From the IMG/VR virus record IMGVR_UViG_3300032167_007519: DNA of 64,000 bases. One strand, written 5' to 3'. This DNA is from a virus (taxonomy: Duplodnaviria; Heunggongvirae; Uroviricota; Caudoviricetes). The notes under the pieces are model-generated. The model was not told the DNA's origin. It was given only the letters and a program-made list of their open reading frames with translations, and did no database searches. A program made the translations under genes and the position numbers. This document shows positions 7,562 through 49,727 of this stretch, in pieces. Each line of letters starts with the position of its first letter. Position 1 is the stretch's first letter.

Positions 7562-7586
7562 AAATGAATTCCTTTCTTAAAATGAT

Positions 7587-8063
7587 TTAGCGGTAAAAAT
7601 TAGGGCTTTGTTTGAATTTTTCTTCTATAGATTCTTCTGCTTTTTCTTCAGAAAAAAATATAGACTCTCCAATTTGAGCTATAGAATATTTGACCTTGTT
7701 GTCATCTACTAAATAAATTTGGCCATTTTCTTTCGTAATTTTGCTAATTGTAATTGGCATTATAGTCGGAATTATTCCAGAACCAAAAGGTTTATATCCA
7801 TATAATTTAGTTCCAATTTTACAAGGGAGTTTACATTCTTTTGTTAATTGTTTAAAGGCTTCATATTGCGAATCAAATAATTCTTTTCCAAAAGCATCTC
7901 CACGAAAGAGTTTTTGCTGAACGTTATCAATATAGGCAACTCCATTTTTGTCGATTATGATTTTATGGATTGTAACGGGTTCTATTTCTTTATCTCCGTT
8001 TCTATGAGTGATTACTTGATATAATGTGTCTTCGGGATTAAACGGGAAATGATAAGTCATCAT
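7587..8063 (-). CDS. Hypothetical protein (158 aa)
   Basis: Tiling ORF. Confidence 0.5.
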   Translation of the reverse strand: MMTYHFPFNPEDTLYQVITHRNGDKEIEPVTIHKIIIDKNGVAYIDNVQQKLFRGDAFGKELFDSQYEAFKQLTKECKLPCKIGTKLYGYKPFGSGIIPTIMPITISKITKENGQIYLVDDNKVKYSIAQIGESIFFSEEKAEESIEEKFKQSPNFYR

Positions 8064-8136
8064 AATAAAAAATCCTCCATTGATATAACGGACGCCTTTT
8101 TCCTGCTTTGCAGGAACTAATCTCCGTTATCTAGAA

Positions 8137-8547
8137 TTACATTGTCATTGTTTTCTTTTGAAACTCATATTCGGAACACTCTAAACCATGTTCTCGTATC
8201 CAATCAGCAACTAATTGTCTATGACAAAAATCTGTGGGTTTTTCGTAACAAATAAGAGCAATGTCTTTTCCGCCAGAAAGGTTCATTAACTCTTCTATTG
8301 TTTGATTAAAATCTAAAACACCTAAAACCTGTTCCTGAAAACATTTGTCATAGTGCTCTGCATCGCCATCTTCTTTATATTTTGCAAAAAAGCTATATTT
8401 TGGAGCTAGTTTTTTATATTGGATACCCGTATACCAAGCCGGAGCTTTGCCACAAATAGAAATAGGGACAATATCTTCCGGTAAGTCTTTTAATTTTGCA
8501 AAATAACTTGTATAAAATGACACGTTTTTTGTAGAATCTTTTATCAT
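8137..8547 (-). CDS. Hypothetical protein (136 aa). It has an FCHR motif; a DUF488-like assignment is possible but uncertain.
   Basis: ORF. The motif is ICYEKPTDFCHRQLVADWI. Confidence 0.45.
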   Translation of the reverse strand: MIKDSTKNVSFYTSYFAKLKDLPEDIVPISICGKAPAWYTGIQYKKLAPKYSFFAKYKEDGDAEHYDKCFQEQVLGVLDFNQTIEELMNLSGGKDIALICYEKPTDFCHRQLVADWIREHGLECSEYEFQKKTMTM

Positions 8548-8564
8548 GATTCAAGTCCTTTCTG

Positions 8565-9350
8565 TTACCTCATAATAAGTGGATTTCCACTATATTCTAT
8601 AGATTCTTGTTCTGAAATATATGCTATAGCATCTTGTTCCTCAATAAAGACTTTACCATCTTTTATCTTTTGAATATCTTCCAGTTTCAAATAATGATGG
8701 TCGATTTCCCAAGCTCCGTCTCCACAGAACTTATAAGGTTCATGAACCATGGTTCCAATTGGACACGGCAAAACAGGACTTAAATCTCCTGTTAATTCTG
8801 CTTGTTTATATCGGTCAAATTCTAAAGCAACCGGAATTACTTCATAAGGAGAAATATAATACATTCCCGGTTTATAGTCGGCATAAGTAACTGTTTTTTG
8901 CTGAAAATACACCTTACAATCTGAATTATCTTTTGCTGTATACCAATGATACTTTACATGAAGGCTATATTTTTCGTCGTTGATACGAAATTCCTGACCT
9001 TCTTTTACCTTAAGGTTATTAGTTACCATATGTTCTGGAGAAATTTCAATAAATGCACCATAATCACCAATAACAATACGTTCAATGTCAGTACAAAGTA
9101 AGGTCCCATCTAAAGAAATCAATGGATACTGTTTTTGTTTAGAAGCAGTTTTGCACCATTCCGGGAGTTCTGCTCTGTATTTTTCTATAAAACTGTCATC
9201 ATGAATTAGCTTTGGATTTTCTGGACTAATGAGATTATTTGAATTATATTGAGGATTCTTTTTTAATATTAGTTTATAGCCGTGCTTGGTTGCTAAATCA
9301 GCTTGGAATTGTAACATTTCTTTTCCTTTTTCGGATATTGGATATTTCAT
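8565..9350 (-). CDS. Hypothetical protein (261 aa)
   Basis: Tiling ORF. Confidence 0.5.
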   Translation of the reverse strand: MKYPISEKGKEMLQFQADLATKHGYKLILKKNPQYNSNNLISPENPKLIHDDSFIEKYRAELPEWCKTASKQKQYPLISLDGTLLCTDIERIVIGDYGAFIEISPEHMVTNNLKVKEGQEFRINDEKYSLHVKYHWYTAKDNSDCKVYFQQKTVTYADYKPGMYYISPYEVIPVALEFDRYKQAELTGDLSPVLPCPIGTMVHEPYKFCGDGAWEIDHHYLKLEDIQKIKDGKVFIEEQDAIAYISEQESIEYSGNPLIMR

Positions 9351-9362
9351 AAAATAATCTCC

Positions 9363-9668
9363 TTATCTTGAAAATGCGTGTGTACTTTCTGCAATATATT
9401 CGATAAATTCTTCTTCACATTCTTTAAAGATTTCTTTTCCTGAAATCACAGAATAAACAGCAAGAGAATATAAATATTTAGCATGGTCGTTACAGCCCCA
9501 GTCAAAGGTCGATTCGAGCATTTTTGAATATTTTTCCAACTTCTCCTGCTTTTCTAAGGCATCAACTGCCATAGCATAGGCAATATCAACACTTGGAGTA
9601 TTATTCTGTTTCCGTTCACATTCCAGTTTATTGATTGCACTTTGGCTTGTCATATCATGCTCATGCAT
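9363..9668 (-). CDS. Hypothetical protein (101 aa)
   Basis: Tiling ORF ending in an FSR tail. Confidence 0.5.
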   Translation of the reverse strand: MHEHDMTSQSAINKLECERKQNNTPSVDIAYAMAVDALEKQEKLEKYSKMLESTFDWGCNDHAKYLYSLAVYSVISGKEIFKECEEEFIEYIAESTHAFSR

Positions 9669-9672
9669 AACT

Positions 9673-10065
9673 TTACCTCCGTAAAATATCTGGATTCTCT
9701 CCTAAAAGGCCTTGTTCTGCAACGAATTCATCATAAGCAGATGCTTTGTCTAATGCTTCACGAAATTCTTCTACGGTTCCAAGACAGGCGTATTTTCCAA
9801 GTTCAACATCTAATCCACCTATTTTTTCAAGAATTTGTATAGGAGTTCCTAAGAATTCATATTGTTCTAGTATTTGTTTCGAACTCTGTAACTCTTTGAG
9901 AGCTTTGATGCCTAGCTTGAGAGCCATATCATAATCACTATCATGATTGTCTTCTACCATTCCGATAAGATTATCCAGTAATTCAATAGCTTCAGGGATT
10001 TGCATACTATTTATTTTATCGGTCATAGAGTCTTTTGTATTTTTAATATCTAGAATAAGCTGCAT
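9673..10065 (-). CDS. Hypothetical protein (130 aa)
   Basis: Tiling ORF. Its C-terminal CGG AGG TAA doubles as the SD for the next gene. Confidence 0.5.
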   Translation of the reverse strand: MQLILDIKNTKDSMTDKINSMQIPEAIELLDNLIGMVEDNHDSDYDMALKLGIKALKELQSSKQILEQYEFLGTPIQILEKIGGLDVELGKYACLGTVEEFREALDKASAYDEFVAEQGLLGENPDILRR

Positions 10066-10080
10066 AAATACCTCTAATAG

Positions 10081-10377
10081 TCATCTTGTAAATTCTTTGT
10101 AATAATCTTTTGAACGCAATTCTGTAATATACGATATAGCTTCTGGAAGATATTTGAGAATATATTCTTCTGTCATATCTTCTAAAAAAGAGGATATCCA
10201 TTGAAGATTTTTAATATGTAGCTCTTCTGCTGTGTCAATATTTTTAGCAACAATTGTATTATGAAAAGAATTATCGGCATGAATCGGATTGTTATCATTA
10301 AAAGTCATATAACAAGTAATCCAAAAATTGCTCTCTCGTTCATACTCTTTATCTTCTGAATGGTACATATTTATCAT
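10081..10377 (-). CDS. Hypothetical protein (98 aa)
   Basis: Tiling ORF. Confidence 0.5.
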   Translation of the reverse strand: MINMYHSEDKEYERESNFWITCYMTFNDNNPIHADNSFHNTIVAKNIDTAEELHIKNLQWISSFLEDMTEEYILKYLPEAISYITELRSKDYYKEFTR

Positions 10378-10428
10378 AATGGTTTTTCCTTTCTTATAAA
10401 GTTATCTATGCCGGGTTTATTCATAAAA

Positions 10429-10704
10429 TCACCTCCGTAGATTAGATTTCTGTTTTAAAAAAGCTTCGTAAGCATCATGTGCTTTTTCAGGGGTTGTAAA
10501 AAACCTTCCATCTTCTTTGTCAATACTGTATTCATGCATCGGATAATAGCCTGAACTTTGAGAAAAACTATCTGAATGAACCGTATATAAAATTCCATCC
10601 GGATAAAATTCATGATTTTTAACAAATTGCATTGCAATTATAGTATATGAAGCCTCAGATTCTTCATAGTCTATGTAATAAATTTTTGAACCTTTATTAA
10701 GCAT
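10429..10704 (-). CDS. Hypothetical protein (91 aa)
   Basis: Tiling ORF. Confidence 0.5.
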   Translation of the reverse strand: MLNKGSKIYYIDYEESEASYTIIAMQFVKNHEFYPDGILYTVHSDSFSQSSGYYPMHEYSIDKEDGRFFTTPEKAHDAYEAFLKQKSNLRR

Positions 10705-10710
10705 AATACG

Positions 10711-11040
10711 TTACCGTCCTTGTTGTTCTGCATAATAATCTTTTGATAACTGCAGTTCGTCCATATACTCCTGATAAGCATCTCGAATATTAAATTCTAT
10801 ATCTTCTGGATAAGCACAATCTTGTTCTAATGCATTTTTAACTTCTTTAATGAATTCCAATGCCGCACGTAATTCAGAAGGAGAACCAAGTTCTTTATAT
10901 TGGTCTACTAGATTTACACAGTCAATGGCGATATCTAATGCTTTAGTTTCTGCATTAGGACTCCAGCCATCTCCTTGTTCAGGGAGACCGCAATTTCTTT
11001 TTGTGTATTCCAAAGTTTTTATAATGTTTTCTTTTGTCAT
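10711..11040 (-). CDS. Hypothetical protein (109 aa)
   Basis: Tiling ORF. Confidence 0.5.
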   Translation of the reverse strand: MTKENIIKTLEYTKRNCGLPEQGDGWSPNAETKALDIAIDCVNLVDQYKELGSPSELRAALEFIKEVKNALEQDCAYPEDIEFNIRDAYQEYMDELQLSKDYYAEQQGR

Positions 11041-11753
11041 TTTTGTATTCCTTCTAATGTTTTATTGAATTCTTCTGTATACTCCAAAGCTTCCGGAATG
11101 TATTGTTTTACGATAGCTTCAAACTCCTCTAATGAACCATGCCAAGTAATAATCGGATACTCTGCAGAACTGTCATCATAAATTGCAACAGCACGATAAA
11201 TATCATTGTTGTTCTTTCTTGTTAAATATGTAGATATAGTTACCGGAAGAATACCGTCTTGCTGACGATGCTTAAAGTTGGACCAAATTTGTCTATCACT
11301 CAGCCCATCAAGAAAATAAAGCATTTTATAAGTATATTCTGGCATTGTATACATAGTTTCCAAAGTGTCTATAAGCTCGTTAAAACGATTCTGTAGCTTT
11401 TTCATTTCTTCAAGTTCTATTTGGTCTGCCTTATCTTGAATTTTGAGTTCTTCTTGTTCTAGAAATTCAAACATTTTTTGTAATGGATACATTTTCTTTC
11501 GGATTGTCGTCTGCAAGAGGGAAATAGCTTTTAAAGGATTATCTTCCAATAAACATACTGACAGATATCGATTATCAACTTTTTCAATTTCTTTAGTCTT
11601 TATGCCATATGTGTACGGTTCTGGCATAGGACTCCATCCAACTTTTTCGTATACATCTCCGTTAAAATTATCATGACGGAAGGTAACCTCATATTCTTTT
11701 TGAATTAAACCTTCATTTGGAGAAATGCAATAATAATATAATTTTTGTTCCAT
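11037..11753 (-). CDS. Hypothetical protein (238 aa)
   Basis: Tiling ORF. Confidence 0.5.
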   Translation of the reverse strand: MEQKLYYYCISPNEGLIQKEYEVTFRHDNFNGDVYEKVGWSPMPEPYTYGIKTKEIEKVDNRYLSVCLLEDNPLKAISLLQTTIRKKMYPLQKMFEFLEQEELKIQDKADQIELEEMKKLQNRFNELIDTLETMYTMPEYTYKMLYFLDGLSDRQIWSNFKHRQQDGILPVTISTYLTRKNNNDIYRAVAIYDDSSAEYPIITWHGSLEEFEAIVKQYIPEALEYTEEFNKTLEGIQK

Positions 11754-11768
11754 AAATCATAAAGCTCC

Positions 11769-12026
11769 TTACCTGTAAAAAGAATCGTTAAAAGAATTGT
11801 GTTCCGTTTCTGTTTGTGAATTTTCTTCTTGAAAAACTATTTTGGAAATATCTCCAATCAATCTTTCTGCAGTAGAAATTTCTTCTGCCAGATGTGCATC
11901 GGTACAAAAATCCCATTGTTCATCTTCATTTACTTTTTTGATAATCATTAAAGATTGTCCAAGCAAACTGTTTATGGAGCGTAAAGCTTTTAGTGTATTG
12001 TCTTTGTCTATAATGTGTCCTGCCAT
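11769..12026 (-). CDS. Hypothetical protein (85 aa)
   Basis: Tiling ORF. Confidence 0.45.
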   Translation of the reverse strand: MAGHIIDKDNTLKALRSINSLLGQSLMIIKKVNEDEQWDFCTDAHLAEEISTAERLIGDISKIVFQEENSQTETEHNSFNDSFYR

Positions 12027-12037
12027 ATATAAACTCC

Positions 12038-12787
12038 TTATCTTGAAAATATTGGTGGATTCATTTTTTGTTGGTTTCTTTTTTCTAACATTTTTTGTGC
12101 ATCTGATTCATTTAGGAAGACTACTTTATCAAAGTCATCAGTTTCGAATTCATACTCTTCAACGGGGTCTCCATAAGAATCATAAAGGCAACAATTATAT
12201 TGATATATTGGACCTTTCACACCTTTTGAAATTATTATTCCGGTAACATCTAATAGAAAGACTTGATTATAAAATTCGTCCATAAAATGAACATGGTCTC
12301 CAATATTACATTTTGGAAGAAACGAGGAAGACTCTTTCATTGAAGTTGTTATTTGTTCTACTTTGCAGATGGCATAATCTAAGCCTTCTACTTTGCCTTC
12401 ATAACGATAATATTCTGCATCGCTATCGGTTCCAATAGGGTTTGCATATATAGTTCTTTCGCTCTTTAAGTTCTCTAATAAATCCTGAAAAACTTGTAAA
12501 TCAACAGGCGTGGTTGCCTGAGACATGGAGACATAATCTTCTTCAAACTGTTTTTTAGGAACAGCTTTAAGAAAAGAACCAGTTTCGGAAAAAATAAGAT
12601 AATTGTTTTCGTATATTCTCTGAATTCCATGACCCGGAACGGCAAGAGAAAAATAACAAGCTCCATCCGGTCTTCTTTCAATGGTAAAATCAAAAGCATT
12701 TCCTTTTGTCATCTTCCGAATTTCATCAAAATTATCTCTCGTAAATAAAATGGCGTTTGTTTTAGAATCTTTGCGAAAATATTCCAT
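12038..12787 (-). CDS. Hypothetical protein (249 aa)
   Basis: Tiling ORF. Confidence 0.5.
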   Translation of the reverse strand: MEYFRKDSKTNAILFTRDNFDEIRKMTKGNAFDFTIERRPDGACYFSLAVPGHGIQRIYENNYLIFSETGSFLKAVPKKQFEEDYVSMSQATTPVDLQVFQDLLENLKSERTIYANPIGTDSDAEYYRYEGKVEGLDYAICKVEQITTSMKESSSFLPKCNIGDHVHFMDEFYNQVFLLDVTGIIISKGVKGPIYQYNCCLYDSYGDPVEEYEFETDDFDKVVFLNESDAQKMLEKRNQQKMNPPIFSR

Positions 12788-12821
12788 AAAAACCTCTTTC
12801 TAAAGCACTTGAAAATACGTT

Positions 12822-13931
12822 TTATAAAGGCATTGTTGAAAAATTAGAAACAGAAGCTAAAGAAGCATTTTTATAAGAATTATCTTCTGTTACCTCTTTA
12901 ATAATTTTGATTTGTTCTGGAAATGAAATACTTTGATTTTCATCACTTAATTCAATTTCCATAATTGCTTTCTTTTTCCAGAAAGGATAGGTATCAATTT
13001 CAAAATATTGATTTTCATGAGTTAAACAATATCTCGTTTTTCTAATTGGTCTTTTTTCTGGGTCTGCGTCCATTAGTAGTTCTAAATATTCTTCTTTAGA
13101 AATTCTACGTTCTGTTTCAATCCGTTTTATATCAGAAATTTTTTTCTTTGTAGTTTGAGAATAGGTATAATGCCCGTTAATACCTCTCTGTCGAATGCGA
13201 GATTCTTCTCCTTCTGGAGCATTTAAATATGTTTGTATTATTTCTACTCGTTGACAATTTGGATTTTGTTCTAACCAGTCTAAATCAGGGTATTCAATCA
13301 AAAACTTACGTTCAATTTCCAATGGTTCTGGTTCTCCTAAAAAGGAGGAAATTTCAGCAATTGTTCTTCTCATTTTCTCAGAAAAATCTGTTGAGTTATC
13401 AATAACTCTTAAATGAGGATGTCCAGTCCATGCAGAAACTAATTTTGCATCAGCCTCAATAGCTTCTTCCGTGGTTTCTCTTCTTGCGGCATTATTTTCT
13501 AAGGTATAAAACTCTTCCGCACCTTTGGCAGCAGTCACTAAATGAAATACCGCATCATATTCATCACGAAGTTCTACTTCATTTTTATTAAGATTTTTTA
13601 AGACTTGCTTAAATTGTTCTTCTGTAACAAAAGCCTTTCCATCTAAAGCACCTCTATCACAAATAATAAGGACTTTATCACAATCCATTTTTTTAGCAGC
13701 TTCTTCAAAGATATGCTCTTTTTCTAACTGAAGACGCATAATATAGGTCTGAAAGTCTACAATATCTTGACAAGTAGTTCCGGAAATACCTCCTAGAATT
13801 AGCTCAGTTGCTGTTTCAGGAACAAATAAAACTCGATATCCTTTATTTTCAAATTCGGTTTGAACTAAACTCATTGAGGTTGATTTCCCGGCACATGGGC
13901 CACCTGTTAATACGATTTTTGATATTTTCAT
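12822..13931 (-). CDS. P-loop NTPase/kinase (AAA_28, NadR-kinase-like) fused to a C-terminal CYTH (triphosphate tunnel metalloenzyme) domain
   Basis: N-terminal Walker A LTGGPCAGKSTS. The C-terminal domain opens with EIERKF, the ExExK CYTH signature, followed by basic/acidic residues typical of CYTH. Confidence 0.6.
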   Translation of the reverse strand: MKISKIVLTGGPCAGKSTSMSLVQTEFENKGYRVLFVPETATELILGGISGTTCQDIVDFQTYIMRLQLEKEHIFEEAAKKMDCDKVLIICDRGALDGKAFVTEEQFKQVLKNLNKNEVELRDEYDAVFHLVTAAKGAEEFYTLENNAARRETTEEAIEADAKLVSAWTGHPHLRVIDNSTDFSEKMRRTIAEISSFLGEPEPLEIERKFLIEYPDLDWLEQNPNCQRVEIIQTYLNAPEGEESRIRQRGINGHYTYSQTTKKKISDIKRIETERRISKEEYLELLMDADPEKRPIRKTRYCLTHENQYFEIDTYPFWKKKAIMEIELSDENQSISFPEQIKIIKEVTEDNSYKNASLASVSNFSTMPL

Positions 13932-13941
13932 AGTGAAAACC

Positions 13942-14325
13942 TTATCTTGAAATTTCTTTTGGGGAAGAATTAGTTAGTTCTTCCTGTTTTCTAAGATATT
14001 CTAAATAAGCATCTATAGCTGCCTCATCTCTATCCTGAGAATGAGAATGTTGTAAAGCTTGCTGTAAATTTTTTGCCAATTCTAAAGCATTTTGAAGTTC
14101 TTCTACAGTTCCTAATTTTTGATATTCTTCTAATAGCAATTGGTCATCATTTGATAAAGAAGGGATATAAGAAACTATTTCCTGCTTCAATTGCTTGAAT
14201 AAATTTTGCACTGCTTTTTTACTTATTGCAGGTTTTTCATCTACCCATGCCAAATGCACGGATAAATTATTTAATTTTTGTTCGTATTTAGCTATAATAT
14301 TTAAAATTGGATGATTAGAATTCAT
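13942..14325 (-). CDS. Hypothetical protein (127 aa)
   Basis: Tiling ORF. Confidence 0.5.
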   Translation of the reverse strand: MNSNHPILNIIAKYEQKLNNLSVHLAWVDEKPAISKKAVQNLFKQLKQEIVSYIPSLSNDDQLLLEEYQKLGTVEELQNALELAKNLQQALQHSHSQDRDEAAIDAYLEYLRKQEELTNSSPKEISR

Positions 14326-14338
14326 AAGGTATTCCTCC

Positions 14339-14626
14339 TTATCTTGTTAGGGATAAACTATTAGAGGTTAAGTCTAAAATATCTTCGCCTTCTGCTTCTA
14401 AAAGTTTTCTATCAAGGGTTGTGAGTTGATAGATTTGACCAATATCTTCACAATCATAAGTGTCTAGAGCTTCTTGGACTAGATAATGTTCTTTAATTTT
14501 CCAAGAAGATACTTGTGTTAAATCTTCATCACTTAATGCAAAAACAGTGTTTCCACGTTCCGGAACATTATCTTCGTTATAATAAATAAGTGGAATTCCA
14601 TAAAGTTGTAAGCTATCTTTGGGCAT
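14339..14626 (-). CDS. Hypothetical protein (95 aa)
   Basis: Tiling ORF. Confidence 0.5.
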   Translation of the reverse strand: MPKDSLQLYGIPLIYYNEDNVPERGNTVFALSDEDLTQVSSWKIKEHYLVQEALDTYDCEDIGQIYQLTTLDRKLLEAEGEDILDLTSNSLSLTR

Positions 14627-14683
14627 ATTTAATTCCTTTTGTTTTGAAAATACTGGATATAAATAATTAACCTTGATTTTTGA

Positions 14684-14959
14684 TTAGATGGAAAAATTAT
14701 AGACAGAGTTAGAAAAATCATCTTCTTCCTCTTCTTCTTTTTTCGCTTCTTTTAATTCCGGATGTAAATCAATGATTTTTCCATATTCTGTGTGAAGACT
14801 GCCTAAACTTCTTGCTTGAAGGTCTGTTTTAATTATTGACATTGGAAAATCTTCAGCGGTTATTTTTTCCCAAAGAGTCTGAATGGCATCTTTAGCATCT
14901 TTAGCAGATACAATAAAGGAATAGTCGGTATTTTTAATAGTAAGTAAATAATCTTTCAT
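14684..14959 (-). CDS. Hypothetical acidic protein (91 aa)
   Basis: Tiling ORF. Confidence 0.5.
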   Translation of the reverse strand: MKDYLLTIKNTDYSFIVSAKDAKDAIQTLWEKITAEDFPMSIIKTDLQARSLGSLHTEYGKIIDLHPELKEAKKEEEEEDDFSNSVYNFSI

Positions 14960-14972
14960 ATAGCCTCCTTTA

Positions 14973-15431
14973 TTATCTGGAAAGTGATTGTGTTTTGTAT
15001 TGATTTAAAGACTCTTGATTTAATTCGTCTCTTTTGGCAAAAGCTTCTTCAGAGGAGAAAAATACAAGTTCGTGGAATCTGTCAGTTCCTACCACACAGC
15101 TTCTTGGTGTTGCTTCTTTTGTTCTCATCCAAACTTCATCTTTTTTGTTACGAGAAATAAGGGATTCTACTCTAGATTCTACAACATCCCATGTTTGGAA
15201 TTTACCGTCGGGATAATCAATGGTTTGTGTTACTATTAGATTCCAAACAGTATCTCCTGCTTTACAAGGGAAAATTTTTAAATGGCCGGATTCTTCTAAC
15301 TCTTTATATCGATTTAATTCTTCTTGTATTTTTTCAATATAACGTTGTTCGGATATGTCTAATTTATTTGCAAATGTAAAAATAGAACGTTTACTCATAA
15401 AGGATTCCTTATCTTGAAAATACTGTTTCAT
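14973..15431 (-). CDS. Hypothetical protein (152 aa), paralog of 15409..15840
   Basis: Shares IFTFANKLD...E..L..Y..LEE......P.C.GD with its neighbour. Confidence 0.55.
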   Translation of the reverse strand: MKQYFQDKESFMSKRSIFTFANKLDISEQRYIEKIQEELNRYKELEESGHLKIFPCKAGDTVWNLIVTQTIDYPDGKFQTWDVVESRVESLISRNKKDEVWMRTKEATPRSCVVGTDRFHELVFFSSEEAFAKRDELNQESLNQYKTQSLSR

Positions 15432-15840
15432 TTTGTTGATTCTCTTCTTCTAAACCATTCATCGCATTTAGTGTGTTTTTACGAGCTGTAGCTGCTTCTA
15501 AAGTAAGGAAAACAGTGTTACCAAATTCTTTAAAATTGATACGATTATCCTCTGTATCTATTACGTAATTTTGATAACGACTTAATTCAATGCTTTGAAC
15601 AATAATTTCTTTTATGTCATAATGAACGTTATTTCCTTTTTTAGCTCTTACGGAAACAATTTCATATAACTTATCACCACAAGCACATGGTAAAGTGGCT
15701 AATCTATTTTGTTCTTCTAATGATTCATACTTTTTTAAACGTTCTTGGACTTTCGTTACATAAGCTTGTTCGGTTTTATCTAACTTGTTTGCGAACGTAA
15801 ATATTGTATTAACTAATTTTTTCATAGAATTAACTTTCAA
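15409..15840 (-). CDS. Hypothetical protein (143 aa), paralog of 14973..15431
   Basis: Tandem duplicate with a conserved N-terminal half. Confidence 0.55.
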   Translation of the reverse strand: MKVNSMKKLVNTIFTFANKLDKTEQAYVTKVQERLKKYESLEEQNRLATLPCACGDKLYEIVSVRAKKGNNVHYDIKEIIVQSIELSRYQNYVIDTEDNRINFKEFGNTVFLTLEAATARKNTLNAMNGLEEENQQNETVFSR

Positions 15841-15923
15841 ATTGAAAACACTATAACTTCATAGTTCCAGAAGACACCCTGACGCCAATCAGAGTGCTCT
15901 GGAATAGAAGTGTTTAATAATTA

Positions 15924-16439
15924 TTACATCGTTAATGCTGGAGCTTGTTCCTGCTCCTCTTCAGATTTTTCTCTTTCTTCCGCCTCTTCCATAATCCGGT
16001 AATATTCGCTGGCTTTCATCGGAATACAAAAATCCGGCAATGAGATTTCAGAATTTGTTTCTATTTTTCCGTACAAAGTATCGTCAATGTGGAATAATTG
16101 CTCGGACCAACGACCATATACACTGACATGATAACCAACCATAGGTTTATGGATAAGGTTTACGTCAGTCATTCTGTCTCGCCAAGCTTTACTTACTTCA
16201 GAGTTCTTTTTGAAAGCACCATAATCACTTTTCATTAACTGGTCCTTAAAATTTAGTTTATCTTGTTGCGTAGGAACTATCTGTAATGTGTCTTTTCTTG
16301 GGTAGTATTCCTTGGTTTCTATGCCAAAATCTTCTCTTATAATGCCAAAAGCTCTGTTTATTCTTTTTCTGTCTTCTATCCATGAAAAATAAGTCTGGTA
16401 AAAAGGACTGTCTTTTTGAATTTCGAAGTATTTCTCCAT
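15924..16439 (-). CDS. Hypothetical protein (171 aa)
   Basis: Tiling ORF. Confidence 0.5.
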   Translation of the reverse strand: MEKYFEIQKDSPFYQTYFSWIEDRKRINRAFGIIREDFGIETKEYYPRKDTLQIVPTQQDKLNFKDQLMKSDYGAFKKNSEVSKAWRDRMTDVNLIHKPMVGYHVSVYGRWSEQLFHIDDTLYGKIETNSEISLPDFCIPMKASEYYRIMEEAEEREKSEEEQEQAPALTM

Positions 16440-16456
16440 AAAAATAATCTCCTGTT

Positions 16457-16828
16457 TTATCTTGAAAGTGCTTGATTTTTTTGTAATCCAACTGAGCTAA
16501 AAAGGTTGTGTTTTATATGTATGTCATACATATTTGCCCAATCAGGATGTAATTGTTTCCCCAAAAAAGAGTCTAAGGAAACACCATTGATAATTTTTTG
16601 TAAAGAGCTTCTATTGATATTCTCACAATTCATTGAGATTGCCGGATATTCGTCTTCTAACGTATAAAAGGCAAACCCAAAAACATCTTCATCATAAACT
16701 ATCATACCTTCTAATGTTTTAGTGTCTTCGTTCCAATCATCAGGACAGAGTTCAAATTGGACTACATCTCCACTATATAGCGGAACTTGCTCTTTATCAT
16801 ATCCAACAAGAAAGTTTGGAATAATCAT
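16457..16828 (-). CDS. Hypothetical protein (123 aa)
   Basis: Tiling ORF. Confidence 0.5.
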   Translation of the reverse strand: MIIPNFLVGYDKEQVPLYSGDVVQFELCPDDWNEDTKTLEGMIVYDEDVFGFAFYTLEDEYPAISMNCENINRSSLQKIINGVSLDSFLGKQLHPDWANMYDIHIKHNLFSSVGLQKNQALSR

Positions 16829-16847
16829 TTGTGTTTTCCTCCTTTTT

Positions 16848-17792
16848 CTATTTAGTAAGTTTCAGGTTATAAGCGTCATCAATAGCTGCATATAATTCCT
16901 GTTGTTTACCAAGAACACAAGCAATACTTATTGCATTTCTGGCAATCTGTTCATCAAAAGAACTATTCTCCATATAACTATTCTCTGTATGAGAATATTC
17001 AGATGGCCATTCTGTGCCATTTGGAAAGAATAATGTATGTTGTTCCTCGTAGCCTTGATTGTCGGTGCAATCTTCAAACTGAGTTGTGACAGTATTGTTA
17101 GAAAGTAAATCATACAAGGCATCCACATAAGATTCATCCGGTACCGGAGTTTTTTGTGGTTTTGATGTAGATGCAGAGGTTTGTGATTGAGCGTCTTTGA
17201 TAGCCTTCATTTCTTCTATAGAGAAATCAGAATTGGCATAACTGGTAACATCTTCCCCTTGAGAAACTTGTTTCAAAAGGAACAACTTCTGTTCGTCAGT
17301 AAAAAAATCCCATCCATGGTTAATACATGGAGAAACATCATATCCACATACCAGACATCTACGAATAGCAGCTAATACTTGTTCATTTTCAGAGTCATTT
17401 AAATATGGAGATAAGTCTACTCCTTGATAACAACCTCTGAAATATTCTTTCATAATTCCTTCTGAATAATAAGGTCTTGCTACTGGTTCAATATTGTATC
17501 CATTTTTAAGAGCTTGAGATAAACGCTCTAATTGAGCAACGGTATATTTTGGATTACAGAGAAGAGAAATATCGGTAATGCCAAAACGTTGAACATCTGA
17601 AATTAACTGCATATGTTTTGCTGAAAAATATGGTTGTAAATATGGAATAATGTCACAACCATCTTTATAAGCATCTGCAAGTACTTTTAATTGCATAGAA
17701 TTGAATCTTGAGTTTACTAAATGAGAAATGCCATATCCATTTTCTTTTGCTTGATTTAAAACAGCTAATTGCTGTTCTGTATAAGTATTCAT
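16848..17792 (-). CDS. Tandem ~36-aa repeat protein. Repeat unit G-x-D-[IV]-[ST]-P-[YW]-x-N-P-x-[FY]-x(5)-[ML]-x(2)-[IL]; first of three paralogs.
   Basis: At least six consecutive repeats, e.g. GVDLSPYLNDSENEQVLAAIRRCL and GYDVSPCINHGWDFFTDEQKLFLLKQV. Confidence 0.55.
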   Translation of the reverse strand: MNTYTEQQLAVLNQAKENGYGISHLVNSRFNSMQLKVLADAYKDGCDIIPYLQPYFSAKHMQLISDVQRFGITDISLLCNPKYTVAQLERLSQALKNGYNIEPVARPYYSEGIMKEYFRGCYQGVDLSPYLNDSENEQVLAAIRRCLVCGYDVSPCINHGWDFFTDEQKLFLLKQVSQGEDVTSYANSDFSIEEMKAIKDAQSQTSASTSKPQKTPVPDESYVDALYDLLSNNTVTTQFEDCTDNQGYEEQHTLFFPNGTEWPSEYSHTENSYMENSSFDEQIARNAISIACVLGKQQELYAAIDDAYNLKLTK

Positions 17793-17814
17793 TTTATTGG
17801 TCCTTTCTTTATGC

Positions 17815-18177
17815 TTAGCTCATAAATCGTGGTAAACTATTTGCTCTTGCATATTCATCAACTGCAGCATGAATAACATCAAATCCGTCTGAACAATCTT
17901 CCAGTTGAGAAATGGAAAGATGGTTTAATACTTCAGTCACTGTCTCTTCATCCGTTGGGAAACCTCTATCTTCAAGAACAGATTTAATATCCTCTTCTTG
18001 CCATAGAACAGTTGCAATATAGGAATCACGGTCAATTAAATTGAGACCATCTCGATTATCGTGTTCCATGGCCTTTAACATTTGTTCTAATGCTTCTCGT
18101 AATGGTCTATGCACAGGATTGCCCAGATAATCCATATCTTTTAGACCTGCTTTAATAGCTTCTTTAGAAATAAACAT
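17815..18177 (-). CDS. Hypothetical protein (120 aa)
   Basis: Tiling ORF. Confidence 0.5.
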   Translation of the reverse strand: MFISKEAIKAGLKDMDYLGNPVHRPLREALEQMLKAMEHDNRDGLNLIDRDSYIATVLWQEEDIKSVLEDRGFPTDEETVTEVLNHLSISQLEDCSDGFDVIHAAVDEYARANSLPRFMS

Positions 18178-18203
18178 AATATATTTTACCTTTCTTCGAA
18201 AAA

Positions 18204-18401
18204 TTACATTGTCATAGCTGGAGTTTTAGTTTGGTATTCTGACAAAATTTGCTGAGCAATCTTATCCATTTCTTTTGGATACATTACTTCGTATCCACCT
18301 AGAAAATCAGCATCATATACGTTCCCTTTTACTTTCTTTGCAAAATCGTTTGCTTCTTTTTCTGTAGGGAACCACTCTTTTAAATAACTTTCTTTGTCCA
18401 T
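18204..18401 (-). CDS. Hypothetical protein (65 aa)
   Basis: Tiling ORF ending MTM then ATGTAATTT. Confidence 0.45.
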   Translation of the reverse strand: MDKESYLKEWFPTEKEANDFAKKVKGNVYDADFLGGYEVMYPKEMDKIAQQILSEYQTKTPAMTM

Positions 18402-18424
18402 AGAGAATACCTCTTTATTTGTAA

Positions 18425-18937
18425 TTACATGGTCATTGGAGTTTGAGATTGTTTTTCTTTAGAATCTTTTTCCAGATTTTGTTCGTATTCTTCATTGATG
18501 CCTGTGAAAAATTTATGAGTGTAATCTTCATTTTCTTCATCAGCCCATACTAAAGTTTCAATACCGTCTTGTCTAACAGCAAGTCCATTTAACCACTTAT
18601 ATGGAGCACGAACCATACAGACGTCTTGAACAACAACATTTTCTTGAGTGTCTTTGACAACTACGGATAGTTCTTCTATATCTCCAGAATCACAAACTTC
18701 AGCTTCTAACGCATAGCGTTCATCCTTTAATGGCGTCTGGATTATTTTATAATTATCACTGCCAAACGTTCTGTGATGATTCTCAATCGAAGGCAAACGT
18801 TCTTCGTCTGTAAATTCGGTATAATGTCTTAAATATAAGCCGGAATCTTCTAACCACCCAAAAGCACTTTGAGGGTCTCCGTTTTCTATTTCTTTAAGCT
18901 TAGCTTCATCGACATCAAATGCTGCTATAATTTTCAT
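18425..18937 (-). CDS. Hypothetical protein (170 aa)
   Basis: Tiling ORF. Confidence 0.5.
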   Translation of the reverse strand: MKIIAAFDVDEAKLKEIENGDPQSAFGWLEDSGLYLRHYTEFTDEERLPSIENHHRTFGSDNYKIIQTPLKDERYALEAEVCDSGDIEELSVVVKDTQENVVVQDVCMVRAPYKWLNGLAVRQDGIETLVWADEENEDYTHKFFTGINEEYEQNLEKDSKEKQSQTPMTM

Positions 18938-18966
18938 AAAATACTCCTATCTGGTTGTAAATACAT

Positions 18967-19161
18967 TTAAAATATTGAGATATCACAAATTTGCTCAATT
19001 TTTTGTTCATGTTCCTCTATAAGGAATTTGAGCATACTTGGTTCAATATGGATTTTTACTTTTTTCCAATCTCCCATAGCAAAAGAATCAGAGATTAGAA
19101 CTTCTCCATTATTCATAATAAAACCATCTAACTCAATGGTTTCTTCTTCATTGATTATCAT
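18967..19161 (-). CDS. Hypothetical protein (64 aa)
   Basis: Tiling ORF. Confidence 0.4.
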   Translation of the reverse strand: MIINEEETIELDGFIMNNGEVLISDSFAMGDWKKVKIHIEPSMLKFLIEEHEQKIEQICDISIF

Positions 19162-19295
19162 AAAGTACCTCTATTTTGTAATTACTTGTGATTGAACAAG
19201 TTCATCAAAAAGTATTAGTTGTTCAATATATTCTCTGCCTTCTCCTTTAAATGTTGGAATGTCTAAATCTATTTTCCAACCATTCTAAAGAAAAA

Positions 19296-19655
19296 TTACA
19301 TGGTGAGAGGATAATGAGTATCTTCTTTTAAAGAATCCTCTTTCTGGAGATTAAGAAGTTTTTCATAAGCAGCAGACAGTTCTTCTTTGTAGGTGGTTGC
19401 CACTTCGTCAATTTTTCTGGTACCTATCACTTTGCAATGAGATTTTTCTTTGAGCCAAGGTTTCGTATGGTCAGGTGTGTATTCAAAACTTCCTCTTATA
19501 GAAGATTTCTTTAATCGTTCTGTGAATTCATCAATGGTCTGTTCACGAACATATTGTTTGTACTTTATAATACTCTCATAAAGAAATCGAAGTGATTCTT
19601 TATCTAGATGTTCCAGTTCTTTAATTTTAGCTAAATCATCAATAAGTGGTTGCAT
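19296..19655 (-). CDS. Hypothetical protein (119 aa)
   Basis: Tiling ORF. Confidence 0.5.
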   Translation of the reverse strand: MQPLIDDLAKIKELEHLDKESLRFLYESIIKYKQYVREQTIDEFTERLKKSSIRGSFEYTPDHTKPWLKEKSHCKVIGTRKIDEVATTYKEELSAAYEKLLNLQKEDSLKEDTHYPLTM

Positions 19656-19676
19656 AATAACTCCTTTTTGTTAATA

Positions 19677-20471
19677 TCACAGTTTCATATTGTGATTAGA
19701 ATTTAAATTCTGTTCTTGACTGTCAAGAAATTCTTCTGCAAGTTCAGACATAGTGGTAAATGGTCTTTCCAACAACTTAGAAGTATCTTGTTCGTCAATG
19801 TATTCTGCAATAAAACAAGCAAAATCTTCTATTTGACATCTATCAGATTCTTTATTCTGAGTAGAATTTGTCTTTTCTTTCGACTTGAGCTGTTCTGTTG
19901 CCAGTGTAAAGGCCAGCATATAAAGGTCTAAGATACCAGTATCTTTCTTTCCAAGGTCATATGCCCATTCCCACGCATCTTCATCAATTTTAGAAAGATG
20001 TTGGAAACCGCTAGTACCAATGCCATTATTTTCATAATCCCTAAGAATACAACGGATGCCTTCTTCAATTATAGATTCTTCATCATCTTCGTATCTTGTA
20101 TAACCTAAGTCATAAAACTCCGGATTATCTAACCAACGCTCTTCTATAATACGTTCTCTTAATTCCTGTTCAGCAAGGTTATAGTCATAGACATCTAGTG
20201 GACGGCTATGACAGTTAATTTTTTCTCTGAAATATCCAGTGTTTCTGGTAAAGTCCGTAAATTTTTCAAATCGCATATTATTGTAATTTGTTGCGACTAA
20301 TTCTCCCAAATCACCGGAGATATGTAATCGACAATAGTCTTCTTCAAATAAAAACCGAATACGATAATGAGAAGAATTTGGGTCTGCAAAATCTAGGATT
20401 TTAATATTGCCAAGGTCTGTTAATGTTGCGATATGATTTTTAAAATTTTGTTTTTGATGTTCAAGGTTCAT
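19677..20471 (-). CDS. Hypothetical protein (264 aa)
   Basis: Tiling ORF. Confidence 0.5.
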   Translation of the reverse strand: MNLEHQKQNFKNHIATLTDLGNIKILDFADPNSSHYRIRFLFEEDYCRLHISGDLGELVATNYNNMRFEKFTDFTRNTGYFREKINCHSRPLDVYDYNLAEQELRERIIEERWLDNPEFYDLGYTRYEDDEESIIEEGIRCILRDYENNGIGTSGFQHLSKIDEDAWEWAYDLGKKDTGILDLYMLAFTLATEQLKSKEKTNSTQNKESDRCQIEDFACFIAEYIDEQDTSKLLERPFTTMSELAEEFLDSQEQNLNSNHNMKL

Positions 20472-20492
20472 AACAAAATACCTTTTTTGAAA

Positions 20493-21008
20493 TTACATAG
20501 TGATTGCTTGAGTTTGTTCCTGTTCTTCTTGATTTTCTTGATATTGTTTTGTAAAATCTTCCAGCAAATCCGCCCAAATACCATTTGGGTTCACATAAAC
20601 AGGACAATTGGTGACTACACTGGTACTAATGGTATTATGACTACAAAAGTCCTTTAATTCTTCTACATACTCTTTAAGAATCTCTGCCTGAAGATATTGT
20701 TTCATCTCCGGAGAAATCATTGTAAGAATGTTTGGTTTTTCATTACTATAACTATGATTCCAAAGAAAATTTTTCCATTTAAAGCACTCAAATTTGGTCG
20801 CATCAAAATCGTAAGAGTAGAGATTTGTTTGATTTAAATTCACAATGTATCCAATGAGAGGACCATTTTTTGTATAAATGCGGCAAGTAATTTCGTTATA
20901 TTGTTTATACCGCATAATATTTTCCACTCTTGTAATATCTGTGAACACCTCTTTTAGTGCTTCTATAATTTCTTTATCAGAAATATTCATAAATTCTTTA
21001 CAAATCAT
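20493..21008 (-). CDS. Hypothetical protein (171 aa)
   Basis: Tiling ORF. Confidence 0.5.
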   Translation of the reverse strand: MICKEFMNISDKEIIEALKEVFTDITRVENIMRYKQYNEITCRIYTKNGPLIGYIVNLNQTNLYSYDFDATKFECFKWKNFLWNHSYSNEKPNILTMISPEMKQYLQAEILKEYVEELKDFCSHNTISTSVVTNCPVYVNPNGIWADLLEDFTKQYQENQEEQEQTQAITM

Positions 21009-21032
21009 GTGAATTAACCTCTTTTGTTGAAA

Positions 21033-21362
21033 TTACATACTCATTACCGTTTGTCGGAGATTTTGAACAGTTTCTCTTTCTAAATCTTCTTTTAATTGCT
21101 CTATCATTCTGAGGTCTTCGATATAAGCGAGCTCTTTATGATAGGCGCTTCCGGTTAAATGTTTTGTGTCTCCACTTAATTTTTGGGAAATTATCTGGCA
21201 TACTTCTTTGAGAATTTCTGATTGAGCTTTTTGTTTTATTGATTCTTCTGAAATAGCAATTTCTTTTAATTCCCGTTCAATGTTTACAGCTTTACGTCCT
21301 TCGACACAGGCCTCATTAAACAGAATATCCCAAAATCTTTCGTCATTAGTGTCAATTAACAT
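21033..21362 (-). CDS. Hypothetical protein (109 aa)
   Basis: Tiling ORF. Confidence 0.5.
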   Translation of the reverse strand: MLIDTNDERFWDILFNEACVEGRKAVNIERELKEIAISEESIKQKAQSEILKEVCQIISQKLSGDTKHLTGSAYHKELAYIEDLRMIEQLKEDLERETVQNLRQTVMSM

Positions 21363-21376
21363 AAGAAATTTCCTTT

Positions 21377-21622
21377 TTATCTTGTAAATACTGGTTTGAT
21401 TGTCTCTTCTACTTCATCTTCATCAACGATTTCATATGACAAAATATGCCCCTGTTGTCTGTCGCTCTCCATATTTGAAAGTTCAAACTCGTCAAACTCT
21501 TCTTGAGACATTTTGATAAAAGAATTTTTCTTTAACGCAACTTTTGTATCATATATTTGAGTTTTATTTGGTTCTGAAAAATGTACATACTTTATTTTCA
21601 TATTATTTGTTCTCCAAATCAA
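21377..21622 (-). CDS. Hypothetical protein (81 aa)
   Basis: Tiling ORF. Confidence 0.45.
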   Translation of the reverse strand: MIWRTNNMKIKYVHFSEPNKTQIYDTKVALKKNSFIKMSQEEFDEFELSNMESDRQQGHILSYEIVDEDEVEETIKPVFTR

Positions 21623-21685
21623 ATAAGATTAGATATAGATAATATTCTTTTTGATTTTTAAAAGGCTTCTTTTTTTTTATTGAAA

Positions 21686-22309
21686 TCACATTCGCATTTG
21701 AGGAGTGGTTACAACCTCTTCTACCTCGTCTTCATCTAATAACTGAAGACTGCCTTCATAATCTCCAGCTTTATCTAACGCTTCTTCCGGAGAAGAGGCC
21801 TTGACTGTTACTGTAGACTGGTAATAACGTTTTACAATGTATTCTTTTTCTTCCAAAAGAGATTGATTGCGTTCATCAAGAGGACGCTTAATCTCTTCAA
21901 AAGAAAGTGATTTGTGCTCAGGAAAAATTATATAATTATTTTCCCGAATGCATCTGGCAATAATTTCAGTTTCGAATGCTGCAAATGTTTCTCCGTCAGC
22001 AAACTTAATCATCCACATAGGATAGTTTACTATCTCAGAATCAAAACTTTCATTTCTATATTGTAATGATGAATATAGTGTTGACGGAATTTTAACTCTT
22101 TCAAGTAGTTGATATGGTTGACCATGATATTTATCTGCTCTTCCATGAACACTATAATAAATGGGACAGAAATCATCCTCAGCTTCGTAACAATCATACA
22201 TGTCGTTTATAAAATGAATCTCTTCGAGGGGAGTCATATCTTTTCGAAATTTATCTGGAGTAATTTTCTGCCACATTTGTCTTGCTTTTTCATTCATAAA
22301 TTTAGGCAC
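21686..22309 (-). CDS. Hypothetical protein (207 aa)
   Basis: Tiling ORF. Confidence 0.5.
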   Translation of the reverse strand: MPKFMNEKARQMWQKITPDKFRKDMTPLEEIHFINDMYDCYEAEDDFCPIYYSVHGRADKYHGQPYQLLERVKIPSTLYSSLQYRNESFDSEIVNYPMWMIKFADGETFAAFETEIIARCIRENNYIIFPEHKSLSFEEIKRPLDERNQSLLEEKEYIVKRYYQSTVTVKASSPEEALDKAGDYEGSLQLLDEDEVEEVVTTPQMRM

Positions 22310-22339
22310 CTTTTTTTATTGAAGTTTCTTATTTTTAAA

Positions 22340-22741
22340 CTATCTTGTAATTGCTGGTGAAGGCTGAAGTAACTGCTCGATTCGTCTTTTGGCTGCATCT
22401 TCCGAATAAAAGATACGTGTTCCAATGTCAGAAGGATAAATATTTGTACTATCAATACACCAAAGAGGAACGTCATCTTCAAAACTTAATAGAGTGATTT
22501 CTTTGCAATGAAGCTCTATAATTTCCGGAGACTCTCTATCGTCTAAAAAGTCAGAAATATCATAAAGTGTATCTCCAATTTTACATGGAGGTTGAAAATA
22601 ATATTTCGTTAAGGGCAAATATCTTTGAACAATTTTTTTTGCATCTTTTAACCAAATTTTATCATGTCCACCAGTACCGCTTGGACAATGGTTAGCAGCT
22701 TCTTGTAAATCCGTTACTATAGAATTGAATATATTTTTCAT
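22340..22741 (-). CDS. Hypothetical protein (133 aa)
   Basis: Tiling ORF. Confidence 0.5.
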   Translation of the reverse strand: MKNIFNSIVTDLQEAANHCPSGTGGHDKIWLKDAKKIVQRYLPLTKYYFQPPCKIGDTLYDISDFLDDRESPEIIELHCKEITLLSFEDDVPLWCIDSTNIYPSDIGTRIFYSEDAAKRRIEQLLQPSPAITR

Positions 22742-24402: not shown

Positions 24403-24482
24403 ATTTTGCCTCAGTTATTTTGAAAATACATTACTGGTTGATATAATCAAGAGCTTCTTACTTTGTCATAATTATCTACTTT

Positions 24483-27071: not shown

Positions 27072-27109
27072 ATACTTTTCCTTTATCGGTTGTAAATACT
27101 AGTATTATA

Positions 27110-41445: not shown

Positions 41446-41490
41446 AAAATTATTCCTCTTTTTCTTTTGAAAATACTGAGTTTTTTAAAA

Positions 41491-49461: not shown

Positions 49462-49540
49462 TTTTCAAGGTGCATTTTTTGTTTTTCTCATTCTTATTCG
49501 GAGTTTTTTAGGATGTGACATAATAAAAATGATAAAACAA

Positions 49541-49630: not shown

Positions 49631-49727
49631 ACATATACTTTTCCTATAGCCTTTCTAAAAGGCTAAGAAATTTAACCCTTTAGAAAAAACTACAGGATGA
49701 GGAAGAATGATAAAGTTTTTATTCACA

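Follow-up and report, generated by a model that had tools for sequence, protein, structure and literature searches.

The small-gene block and its gene ends

The stretch of DNA considered here is 64,000 nucleotides (nt) long and comes from the Caudoviricetes virus record IMGVR_UViG_3300032167_007519 of IMG/VR; the whole of it is called the window below. On its minus strand lies a block of small genes (6090-22741) whose products repeatedly end in arginine (R) or methionine (M), and our subject is the origin of these C-terminal tails and of a 10-nt motif, GTAWTTWCAA, that recurs at the gene junctions (Table 1). The minus strand carries every gene of the region, neighbouring genes being co-oriented. 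Genes are named by their coordinate in the window (g15924, for example), and our own open reading frame (ORF) calls match the Joint Genome Institute gene calls of the source contig, which is metagenomic, measures at least 117 kb and exists in a copy of up to 164 kb. The same phage is present on 18 contigs that are 99.9-100% identical and thus provide no usable polymorphism.

An earlier note on this DNA had counted about 35 consecutive genes between 7587 and 22741, 17 of them ending in Arg and 8 in Met. Our count for that interval is 31 genes with 16 Arg and 8 Met ends, which the two adjoining genes (6090-7561) bring to 33, 17 and 8. The enrichment of terminal R and M, which the note had proposed to compare with controls, is borne out by Fisher and binomial tests within the window: the 68 genes outside the block have 7 R and 1 M ends (Fisher p = 2e-10 versus the block), and against a background of 3.7% R and 2.0% M, taken from the window's own composition, the binomial p values are 2e-16 (R) and 2e-7 (M). 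A hydrophobic residue followed by Ser or Thr, then by Arg, Met or Lys and the stop, is found in 18 of the 33 block genes and in 1 of the 68 others, and the observation of recurrent R and M tails is confirmed as real. The R tails are concentrated at 6-16.8 kb and the M tails at 15.9-22.3 kb; g15924 and g20493 have about 33 nt of their 3' ends in common, without other similarity.

The tailed proteins had been described as unrelated, which holds for the M-tail proteins, among which no relationship was detectable, and not for several of the R-tail proteins, which are paralogous: g6090, g7587, g14973, g15409 and g22340 belong together, as do g10711 and g13942. The larger of these families, defined by a domain of the form PCxIGDTLY ... 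(F/Y)F(S/T)xEEA, has no Pfam or PHROG match. A search of PHROGs and Pfam with 10 block proteins matched DUF488 and phrog_5051 only, and megablast of the block against phage and plasmid collections gave no match. Among the DNA words that the note had placed at gene ends, ATGTAATTT was found there four times and not six, a count that holds only for ATGTAATT; AAGATAAGG occurs at five gene ends and once internally (6 in total, against 1.3 expected). The ClpX-like unfoldase that it had mentioned is an AAA+ protein with only distant likeness to ClpX/HslU (E = 2e-11 to ClpX structures).

A motif tied to the downstream start codon

When the junctions are aligned on the downstream start codon, and not on the upstream stop, the motif GTAWTTWCAA becomes visible. 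It precedes start codons by 19-32 nt and the Shine-Dalgarno sequence (SD) by 1-13 nt; for its TTWCAA part the distances are 18-30 nt to the ATG and 1-13 nt to the SD. TTTCAA is the top enriched hexamer at positions -40 to -12 of starts (18 observed versus 0.89 expected, p = 7e-18), and is enriched outside the block too (6 versus 0.85 expected). On the coding strand, a start follows 29 of the 101 copies of TTWCAA at a distance of 12-40 nt, most frequently 20-24 nt. The exact 10-mer is present there 12 times, each time before a start (TTWCAA 23-27 nt upstream), and the other strand has a single copy; the expectation is about one for either strand. G(-4), A(-2) and TTWCAA are conserved in a position weight matrix, which shows no conservation further upstream in the motif flanks.

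This position relative to starts is kept whatever the reading frame, since the motif is found in four contexts (Table 1): in frame 1 at the ends of eight R-tail genes, in frame 2 at the ends of four or five M-tail genes, in non-coding spacers (five in the block, one just upstream and two further out) and once in the interior of a coding region. Several TTWCAA copies directly abut the SD (TTTCAAAGGAGG at 30471, 59126 and 60344). The hexamer TTTTAC is likewise read in different frames, giving F-Y-R tails (TTT TAC) and an I-L-R-R tail (ATT TTA C). Stop codons fall close to the ribosome-binding site of the next co-oriented gene or within it, and gaps are short: TAA is fused to GGAG at five junctions, GGAGG lies inside the last codons at two, and four Arg termini are the AGG of an SD (GGAGG-TAA or AGG-TAA-GGAG). 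The junction RNA is weakly structured (mean minimum free energy, MFE, of -4.8 versus -7.1 kcal/mol for internal windows), folding of the 33 junctions gave no structure signal (MFE z-score 0.05), and an Rfam scan of the window returned only a transfer-messenger RNA (tmRNA) and tRNAs, none of them in the block. In its constant placement ahead of the SD on the mRNA strand, and in lying in weakly folding RNA, the motif resembles a translational enhancer.

Several other readings of the junction sequences were tried and rejected. When viral contigs were scanned for exact matches to GYATTTWCAAGATAAGGAG, two were obtained, and the one inspected, in the contig L007, is probably due to chance and not to relationship, as this contig resembles an unrelated phage. 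A palindromic protein-binding site was discarded because only the GTAATTAC variants are palindromic, and pairing of TTTCA with the start region AUGAAA is, by inspection, inconsistent across genes. The sequences relevant to a comparison with the 3' end of host 16S ribosomal RNA (rRNA) are GATAAGGAG and TTWCAA; extended pairing of AGA-U-AAGGAG with the Firmicutes 16S rRNA 3' tail was dismissed, since relatives with the same overlaps show no AGA preference. Stop-codon reassignment or readthrough does not apply either, as no suppressor tRNA is present and each of the three stop codons is used normally.

Table 1. Junction motif copies, gene relics and other features, with window coordinates
Feature	Position	Strand	Context
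Small-gene block	6090..22741	-	33 tightly packed genes, gaps mostly 4-26 nt; 17 Arg ends, 8 Met ends
GTATTTACAA, frame 1	21382..21391	-	g21377 tail KPVFTR, AGA TAA; 29 nt 5' of start 21362
GTATTTTCAA, frame 1	15414..15423	-	g15409 tail ETVFSR, then TAA-GGAA; next start probably 15398
ATATTTTCAA, frame 1	12043..12052	-	g12038 tail PPIFSR, AGA TAA GGAG
GCATTTTCAA, frame 1	9368..9377	-	g9363 tail THAFSR, AGA TAA GGAG
GAAATTTCAA, frame 1	13947..13956	-	g13942 tail PKEISR
GAATTTACAA, frame 1	10086..10095	-	g10081 tail YKEFTR, AGA TGA
GCACTTTCAA, frame 1	16462..16471	-	g16457 tail NQALSR
GCAATTACAA, frame 1	22345..22354	-	g22340 tail SPAITR, AGA TAG
GTAATTTCAA, stop inside motif (ATG, then TAA TTT CAA)	21027..21036	-	g21033 tail QTVMSM
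GTAATTTCAA, stop inside motif	20487..20496	-	g20493 tail TQAITM
GTAATTACAA, stop inside motif	18419..18428	-	g18425 tail QTPMTM
Variant GTGATTTCAA, TGA stop inside motif	21680..21689	-	g21686 tail TPQMRM
GTATTTACAA, non-coding	18955..18964	-	29-nt spacer before start 18937; entire spacer identical in L015
GTAATTACAA, non-coding in window	19176..19185	-	Before start 19161; in L015, 3' end (QSQVISK-stop) of the g19296 orthologue
GTATTTTCAA, non-coding	14644..14653	-	57-nt spacer before start 14626
GTATTTTCAA, non-coding	12809..12818	-	34-nt spacer before start 12787
GTGTTTTCAA, non-coding	15842..15851	-	Before start 15825
GAATTTTCAA, inside g6746 coding region	6781..6790	-	14 codons before the g6746 stop; usual 32 nt from overlapping downstream start 6758
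Exact copy, non-coding, outside block	24420..24429	-	27 nt 5' of start 24402
Further exact copies outside block	27090-27099, 41467-41476		Non-coding
Relic of lost downstream gene	8064..8136	-	Start now CTG; motif decayed to TTCTAG
About 140 nt absent from L015	19162..19295	-	Makes HYPLTM-stop end of g19296; old tail left as relic
PCxIGDTLY paralogue family	6090-6758, 7587-8063, 14973-15431, 15409-15840, 22340-22741
Weaker members of that family	12038-12787, 8565-9350, 10429-10704
Helical-repeat proteins	16848-17792, 23098-24402		Tandem repeats of about 50 amino acids, Nxx(F/Y)SxxQ(M/L)xxIxxGxxxGxD(V/I)
AAA_28-CYTH gene	12822-13931	-	Mid-block
AAA+ protein	3226-4275		ClpX/HslU-like
Two SPFH/flotillin-like proteins	31200-32786, 35191-36288	-	Few kb apart
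Seven tRNA genes	49540-58054	-	Ser-tga, Gly-tcc, two Met-cat, Leu-tag, Gln-ttg, Lys-ttt
tRNA-like RNA	50830-50956	-	60-nt anticodon-loop insert (Rfam tRNA 47 bits; ARAGORN no call)
DUF2828/DUF7788/vWA gene	51022-52497		tRNA-like RNA directly 3' of it
Phage tmRNA	53280-53667	-	Rfam RF00023, 132.8 bits; tag peptide ANAYRPVAQAA

Codon choice and orthologous tails

The codons of the R tails are far from those used elsewhere. Ser at position -2 is encoded by TCA in 5 of 6 cases, versus 12.4% of Ser codons in genome usage (p = 1.6e-4), Thr at -2 by ACA in 4 of 4, and the terminal Arg by AGG in 4 of 17, versus a usage of 3.8%. This skewed codon choice in the R tails points to a constraint at the nucleotide and not at the peptide level. 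The Thr codons of the M tails, on the other hand, agree with genome usage. Two of the tRNAs encoded in the window, Ser-tga and Gln-ttg, decode TCA and CAA, codons that occur in the junction motif.

Relatives of the same lineage are represented by two short contigs, L009 and L015 (samples ERZ15610165 and ERZ28653927), with identities to the window of about 65% and 73%. All five orthologous tails that can be compared differ, one of them being wholly spacer in the relative. In L009, NPLIMR is replaced by NPLVMY and KTMTM by QTMIL; in L015, QTPMTM is replaced by ASILKM, in which the terminal Met is kept, and HYPLTM by QSQVISK. The L009 orthologue of g7587 stops 14 codons earlier with its distance to the next ATG unchanged, so that the window's g7587 tail, SIEEKFKQSPNFYR, is spacer DNA in L009.

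The motif travels with the downstream gene. L009 retains TAG-TTTCAA-ATCACGGAG (TAG TTTCAAATCACGGAG) ahead of a gene of 82 amino acids that is lost in the window, where its start ATG is now CTG and the motif has decayed. At the junction CAAGTAATTTCAAAATAGAGG, the L015 orthologue of g19296 terminates with QSQVISK-stop. The window carries an additional stretch of about 140 nt at this gene end, and at the junction motif its identity to L015 rises abruptly from about 75% to about 98%. The motif precedes the same downstream gene in the window and in L015, being kept before the g18967 orthologue despite a different upstream context, and the spacer TAAATGTATTTACAACCAGATAGGAGTATTTTATG is identical in both.

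Wider comparisons give the same picture of the tails. The M-tail protein g15924 extends about 15 residues past the domain conserved among its 141 full-length homologues; the termini of these are mostly K, E or D, with 3 M and 5 R, and the tail pattern is seen in 1 of the 141. Five syntenic regions found via g6746 homologues (L010-L014) have similar stop-SD overlaps, and of their 155 gene ends 8 are R and 1 is M. Such overlaps without R or M bias show that stop-SD overlap alone does not make the tails; the lineage-specific motif does. Some relatives have an analogous pre-SD motif, GTTTTAAGGAGG or G(A)TTTTAAG(G)AGG, which is untranslated because their spacers are longer. The genes of L010-L014, which include YorF, YorH, DnaB, the alpha subunit of DNA polymerase III and DNA ligase, make the lineage SPbeta-like.

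Tails as a probable by-product of a proposed initiation cassette

We favour the explanation that the tails are a by-product of a translation-initiation cassette, and put its probability at about 0.6 as a whole. Its two parts differ in strength. That the tails result from a nucleotide cassette at the junctions, and are not a peptide signal, is highly probable from the sequence comparisons described above; that the cassette is an extended translation-initiation region is a tentative proposal, for which we would offer slightly less than even odds. It is suggested because the motif keeps a tight distance to starts, lies in the region that the ribosome covers, is weakly structured as RNA and co-varies with the downstream gene.

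The cassette spans about 25-30 nt, consists of [A/C][T/A]-GTAWTTWCAA, 1-13 nt (often GATAA), the SD (GGAG or AGAGG), a T-rich spacer and the ATG, and belongs to the downstream gene. With gaps of 4-26 nt, the upstream ORF usually terminates inside it. An ORF that enters in frame 1 is read as GTA/GCA-TTT/ATT-TCA/ACA-AGA-TAA(-GGAG) and ends in [V/A]-[F/I/L]-[S/T]-R-stop, one that enters in frame 2 meets the TAA of G-TAA-TT, with the preceding AT-G yielding a terminal Met, and the four further Arg ends derive from the AGG belonging to the SD. On the mRNA, the cassette would act as an extended initiation region through its U-rich/CAA stretch, which lies unstructured ahead of the SD. In a secondary role, its repeats may provide short homologies for the gain, loss or swap of accessory genes; the identity jump and the gene relics suggest that the cassette is also a recombination boundary.

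Parts of what the earlier note had proposed are contained in this explanation. It had read the R class as a signature of translational coupling, and these ends are indeed largely stop-SD fusions (AGA-TAA-GGAG, or AGG within GGAGG), a mark, in the nucleotides, of how tightly the genes are packed, but the overlap alone is insufficient and the longer motif is the driver. ATGTAATTT, which the note had suggested might be a separate signal, is a copy of this motif (G-TAA-TTT-CAA) that the upstream ORF enters in a different frame, the stop codon falling within it. The C-terminal degron or targeting tag that it had listed among its candidates is disfavoured by tails that are unconserved in orthologues and absent from the wider family, and by an R-tail codon bias of nucleotide origin.

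Several observations weigh against a by-product of initiation as the complete answer. The translational role of the motif is deduced from its position. In the M tails, Thr at -2 is present in 6 of 8 cases (p = 1.7e-6) through all four ACN codons (ACG, ACA, ACC, ACT) and the -3 residue is always hydrophobic (NTN), a pattern that looks like a peptide-level constraint and that the 10-nt motif does not explain. Nine of the 17 R tails are without a copy of the 10-mer at up to 2 mismatches, and two of these nine (CGC, CGG) have no obvious nucleotide cause. ATG-TAA is kept in an L015 orthologue even without TTWCAA after it, and the two same-lineage contigs measure just 2.8 kb and 0.9 kb. The Thr residual has a partial answer: scored with the matrix of R-type junctions, M tails reach -6.7 versus -16.9 for control gene ends (p = 0.001), and each may represent an R-type junction that has degenerated, with an intact copy of the motif after it. 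A peptide role of the M tail retains a small probability. Note also that ATG-TAA or ATG-TGA is found at eight gene ends; a minimal start-stop ORF (AUG-UAA) was rejected there, because by inspection no GGAG or GAGG stands at SD distance from these eight ATGs, and AGGA about 20 nt upstream is present in two only.

Alternative explanations

The junction repeats could instead reflect descent and recombination, the block having grown and been reshuffled by duplication, insertion and deletion at short conserved boundary sequences, like the boundary sequences known from phages or the PeSL cassettes of T4, with the tails inherited and SD carriage as the only function. The window and L015 change identity exactly at one junction motif, beside the 140-nt indel, gene relics adjoin junctions, the clustering of M and R tails suggests local spread of junction types, and the composite look of the M tails, the common 3' ends of g15924 and g20493 and the several paralogue families, which show that duplication took place, all fit such a history. 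It is nevertheless unlikely as the main explanation: intact spacer copies at a fixed distance from starts, also outside the block, and the decay of one motif copy after its downstream gene was lost both point to present selection tied to the downstream gene, a single junction breakpoint was seen, and a chimeric gene in L009 broke inside paralogous domains and not at a junction. Functional C-terminal peptides of the form hydrophobic-[S/T]-[R/M/K]-COOH, serving as a degron or docking tag for the ClpX/HslU-like AAA+ protein or another partner and with the nucleotide motif partly their consequence, would unite both classes in one pattern, [P/Q/T]-[A/V/P]-hydrophobic-[S/T]-[R/M] after E/Q/K-rich linkers, and would suit the M-tail Thr with its four codons, the terminal Met kept in one orthologue and the AAA+ unfoldase and tmRNA encoded nearby. 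We regard this as very improbable, as the motif is intact in non-coding spacers and after M-class stops, where no peptide is made, TTTTAC serves different frames (F-Y versus I-L), the Ser, Thr and Arg codons of the R tails depart from genome usage, and the tails are missing from their orthologues, from the 141 family members but one, and as a bias from the 155 gene ends of the relatives. Known C-terminal degrons of ClpX, moreover, end in small non-polar residues, for example LAA.

A short, strand-specific motif upstream of gene starts might also be a promoter recognised by a sigma factor or RNA polymerase specific to the phage and placed ahead of many early genes, and phage-specific promoters can be short and without a -35 element, as those of T4 late genes and of the non-virion RNA polymerases of phiKZ and AR9. 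Here, no -35-like conservation was found, the conserved positions are not the key -10 ones, and sigma-70-like matches in a scan number 75 versus 84 expected. A transcript starting after the motif would lack the SD where TTWCAA abuts it, and it would be unusual to find about 20 promoters in 16 kb, each 10-30 nt beyond the preceding stop and with no terminators, which makes this a poor prospect. The same may be said of an endoribonuclease site, of the RNase Y type (after G in A/U-rich RNA) or RegB-like, at which a polycistronic early mRNA would be cut into monocistronic units 5' of each SD: RNase Y prefers cutting after G in A/U-rich RNA, and a conserved G followed by an A/U-rich stretch does lie in single-stranded RNA 5' of each SD, but the best-conserved part, TTWCAA with its C and AA, is not needed for this preference, and no nuclease gene was identified in the window. 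Rather unlikely, finally, is a broader proposal in which GTAWTTWCAA is a lineage-specific cis-signal for a dedicated phage factor, a translational regulator or an endoribonuclease, that co-ordinates an anti-defence or host-takeover block; the motif would double as an exchange boundary, and the hydrophobic-Thr-Met-COOH end of the M class, with its Thr kept through all four codons, would have been co-opted as a tag, making the junction dual-coding.

Other features of the window and its relatives

The sequence data suggest that the block is an anti-defence or accessory-gene island. In L010, L013 and L014, the neighbours of the g6746 homologue encode the anti-defence Pfam families Tad8, Acb2/Tad1, NADAR, Sequestin and PARG, and in L012 an IS605-type OrfB/TnpB gene and a resolvase-like gene (8002-9784) stand directly upstream of it. 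The L009 chimera (protein P0002, 130-810) joins the N-terminal two-thirds of g12038 to the C-terminal domain of g8565 and indicates recombination between paralogous domains, in which the intervening genes would have been deleted. The mid-block AAA_28 gene encodes an NTPase fused to a CYTH (triphosphate tunnel) domain, and no relatives of it were found in viral contigs. The two helical-repeat proteins are mutually related (E = 5e-21). Outside the block, the window encodes a pair of SPFH/flotillin-like proteins, a tmRNA in the same genome as the AAA+ protein, and a tRNA-like RNA, possibly a tRNA with an intron or else a Y-RNA-like (YrlA-type) molecule that partners a Ro/TROVE-like protein.

Comparison with known systems

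If the tails are a by-product as proposed, the block illustrates clearly how, in nature, a non-coding signal imposes amino-acid sequence on many unrelated proteins, with about 25 proteins owing C-terminal extensions to translation of the next gene's initiation region. It would also serve as a caution that recurrent termini in compact phage genomes are not automatically degrons or sorting signals. The motif defines an uncharacterised pre-SD element in an uncultivated SPbeta-like lineage, with the sister motif GTTTTAAGGAGG in relatives, and is a candidate translation element for low-GC Gram-positive hosts as well as a candidate marker of cassette boundaries in accessory or anti-defence islands.

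The host-takeover module of SPO1 comprises 24-26 small early genes with uniformly strong ribosome-binding sites, according to a passage in PMC6873191 that cites Stewart et al. 1998. The present block resembles it in its small, co-oriented early or accessory genes (early timing being presumed here), in belonging to a Firmicutes phage and in its unusually uniform initiation regions, and differs in that this phage is SPbeta-like and not a member of the Herelleviridae. To our knowledge, neither a pre-SD TTWCAA motif nor common C-terminal tails are known from SPO1. In T4-type phages, modular shuffling is mediated by PeSL (promoter-early plus stem-loop) cassettes (PMC2839356, PMC4122927). As there, short regulatory cassettes are repeated between the non-essential ORFs of a hyperplastic region. 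Of the recombination events seen here, one, an identity jump with an indel, falls at a cassette, and one, a chimera, does not. The difference is that our cassettes are fused to the SD and overlap coding sequence, and have neither the strong sigma-70 promoter (no -35/-10 in the aligned flanks, sigma-70-like matches not exceeding expectation) nor the stem-loop terminator (10 terminator-like sites versus 7.9 expected, none at a junction) of PeSL.

Like C-terminal degrons, such as the ssrA tag (LAA) and the C-motifs recognised by ClpX, the tails are short motifs that follow a flexible linker at the very C-terminus, and this genome also encodes a tmRNA and an AAA+ unfoldase. The tails differ from such degrons in ending in Arg or Met and not in small non-polar residues, in being unconserved in orthologues and in having their signal in nucleotides. 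A/U-rich translational enhancers 5' of the SD include target sites of ribosomal protein S1, the epsilon element of T7 gene 10 and CAA-rich leaders. The motif is like them in its position 5' of the SD within the ribosome footprint and in its unstructured U-rich/CAA composition, with GTTTTAAGGAGG in relatives, but its conserved G and C are not explained by A/U-richness; low-GC Gram-positive bacteria are, besides, thought to depend little on S1.

The closest likeness may be sought in coupled operon genes, where the upstream 3' end carries the downstream ribosome-binding site and the last codons (AGG, GGA, GAG, AGA-TAA-GGAG) and the choice of stop are constrained; Eyre-Walker reportedly described in 1996 that gene proximity affects stop and codon use. 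The present constraint is longer, with an extra 10-nt motif 5' of the SD and a tail of 4-5 residues common to about 25 proteins, and related phages with the same overlaps are without these tails. Coding constraint from a downstream ribosome-binding site is already known, and the present case is a lineage-specific form of it with a longer pre-SD motif.

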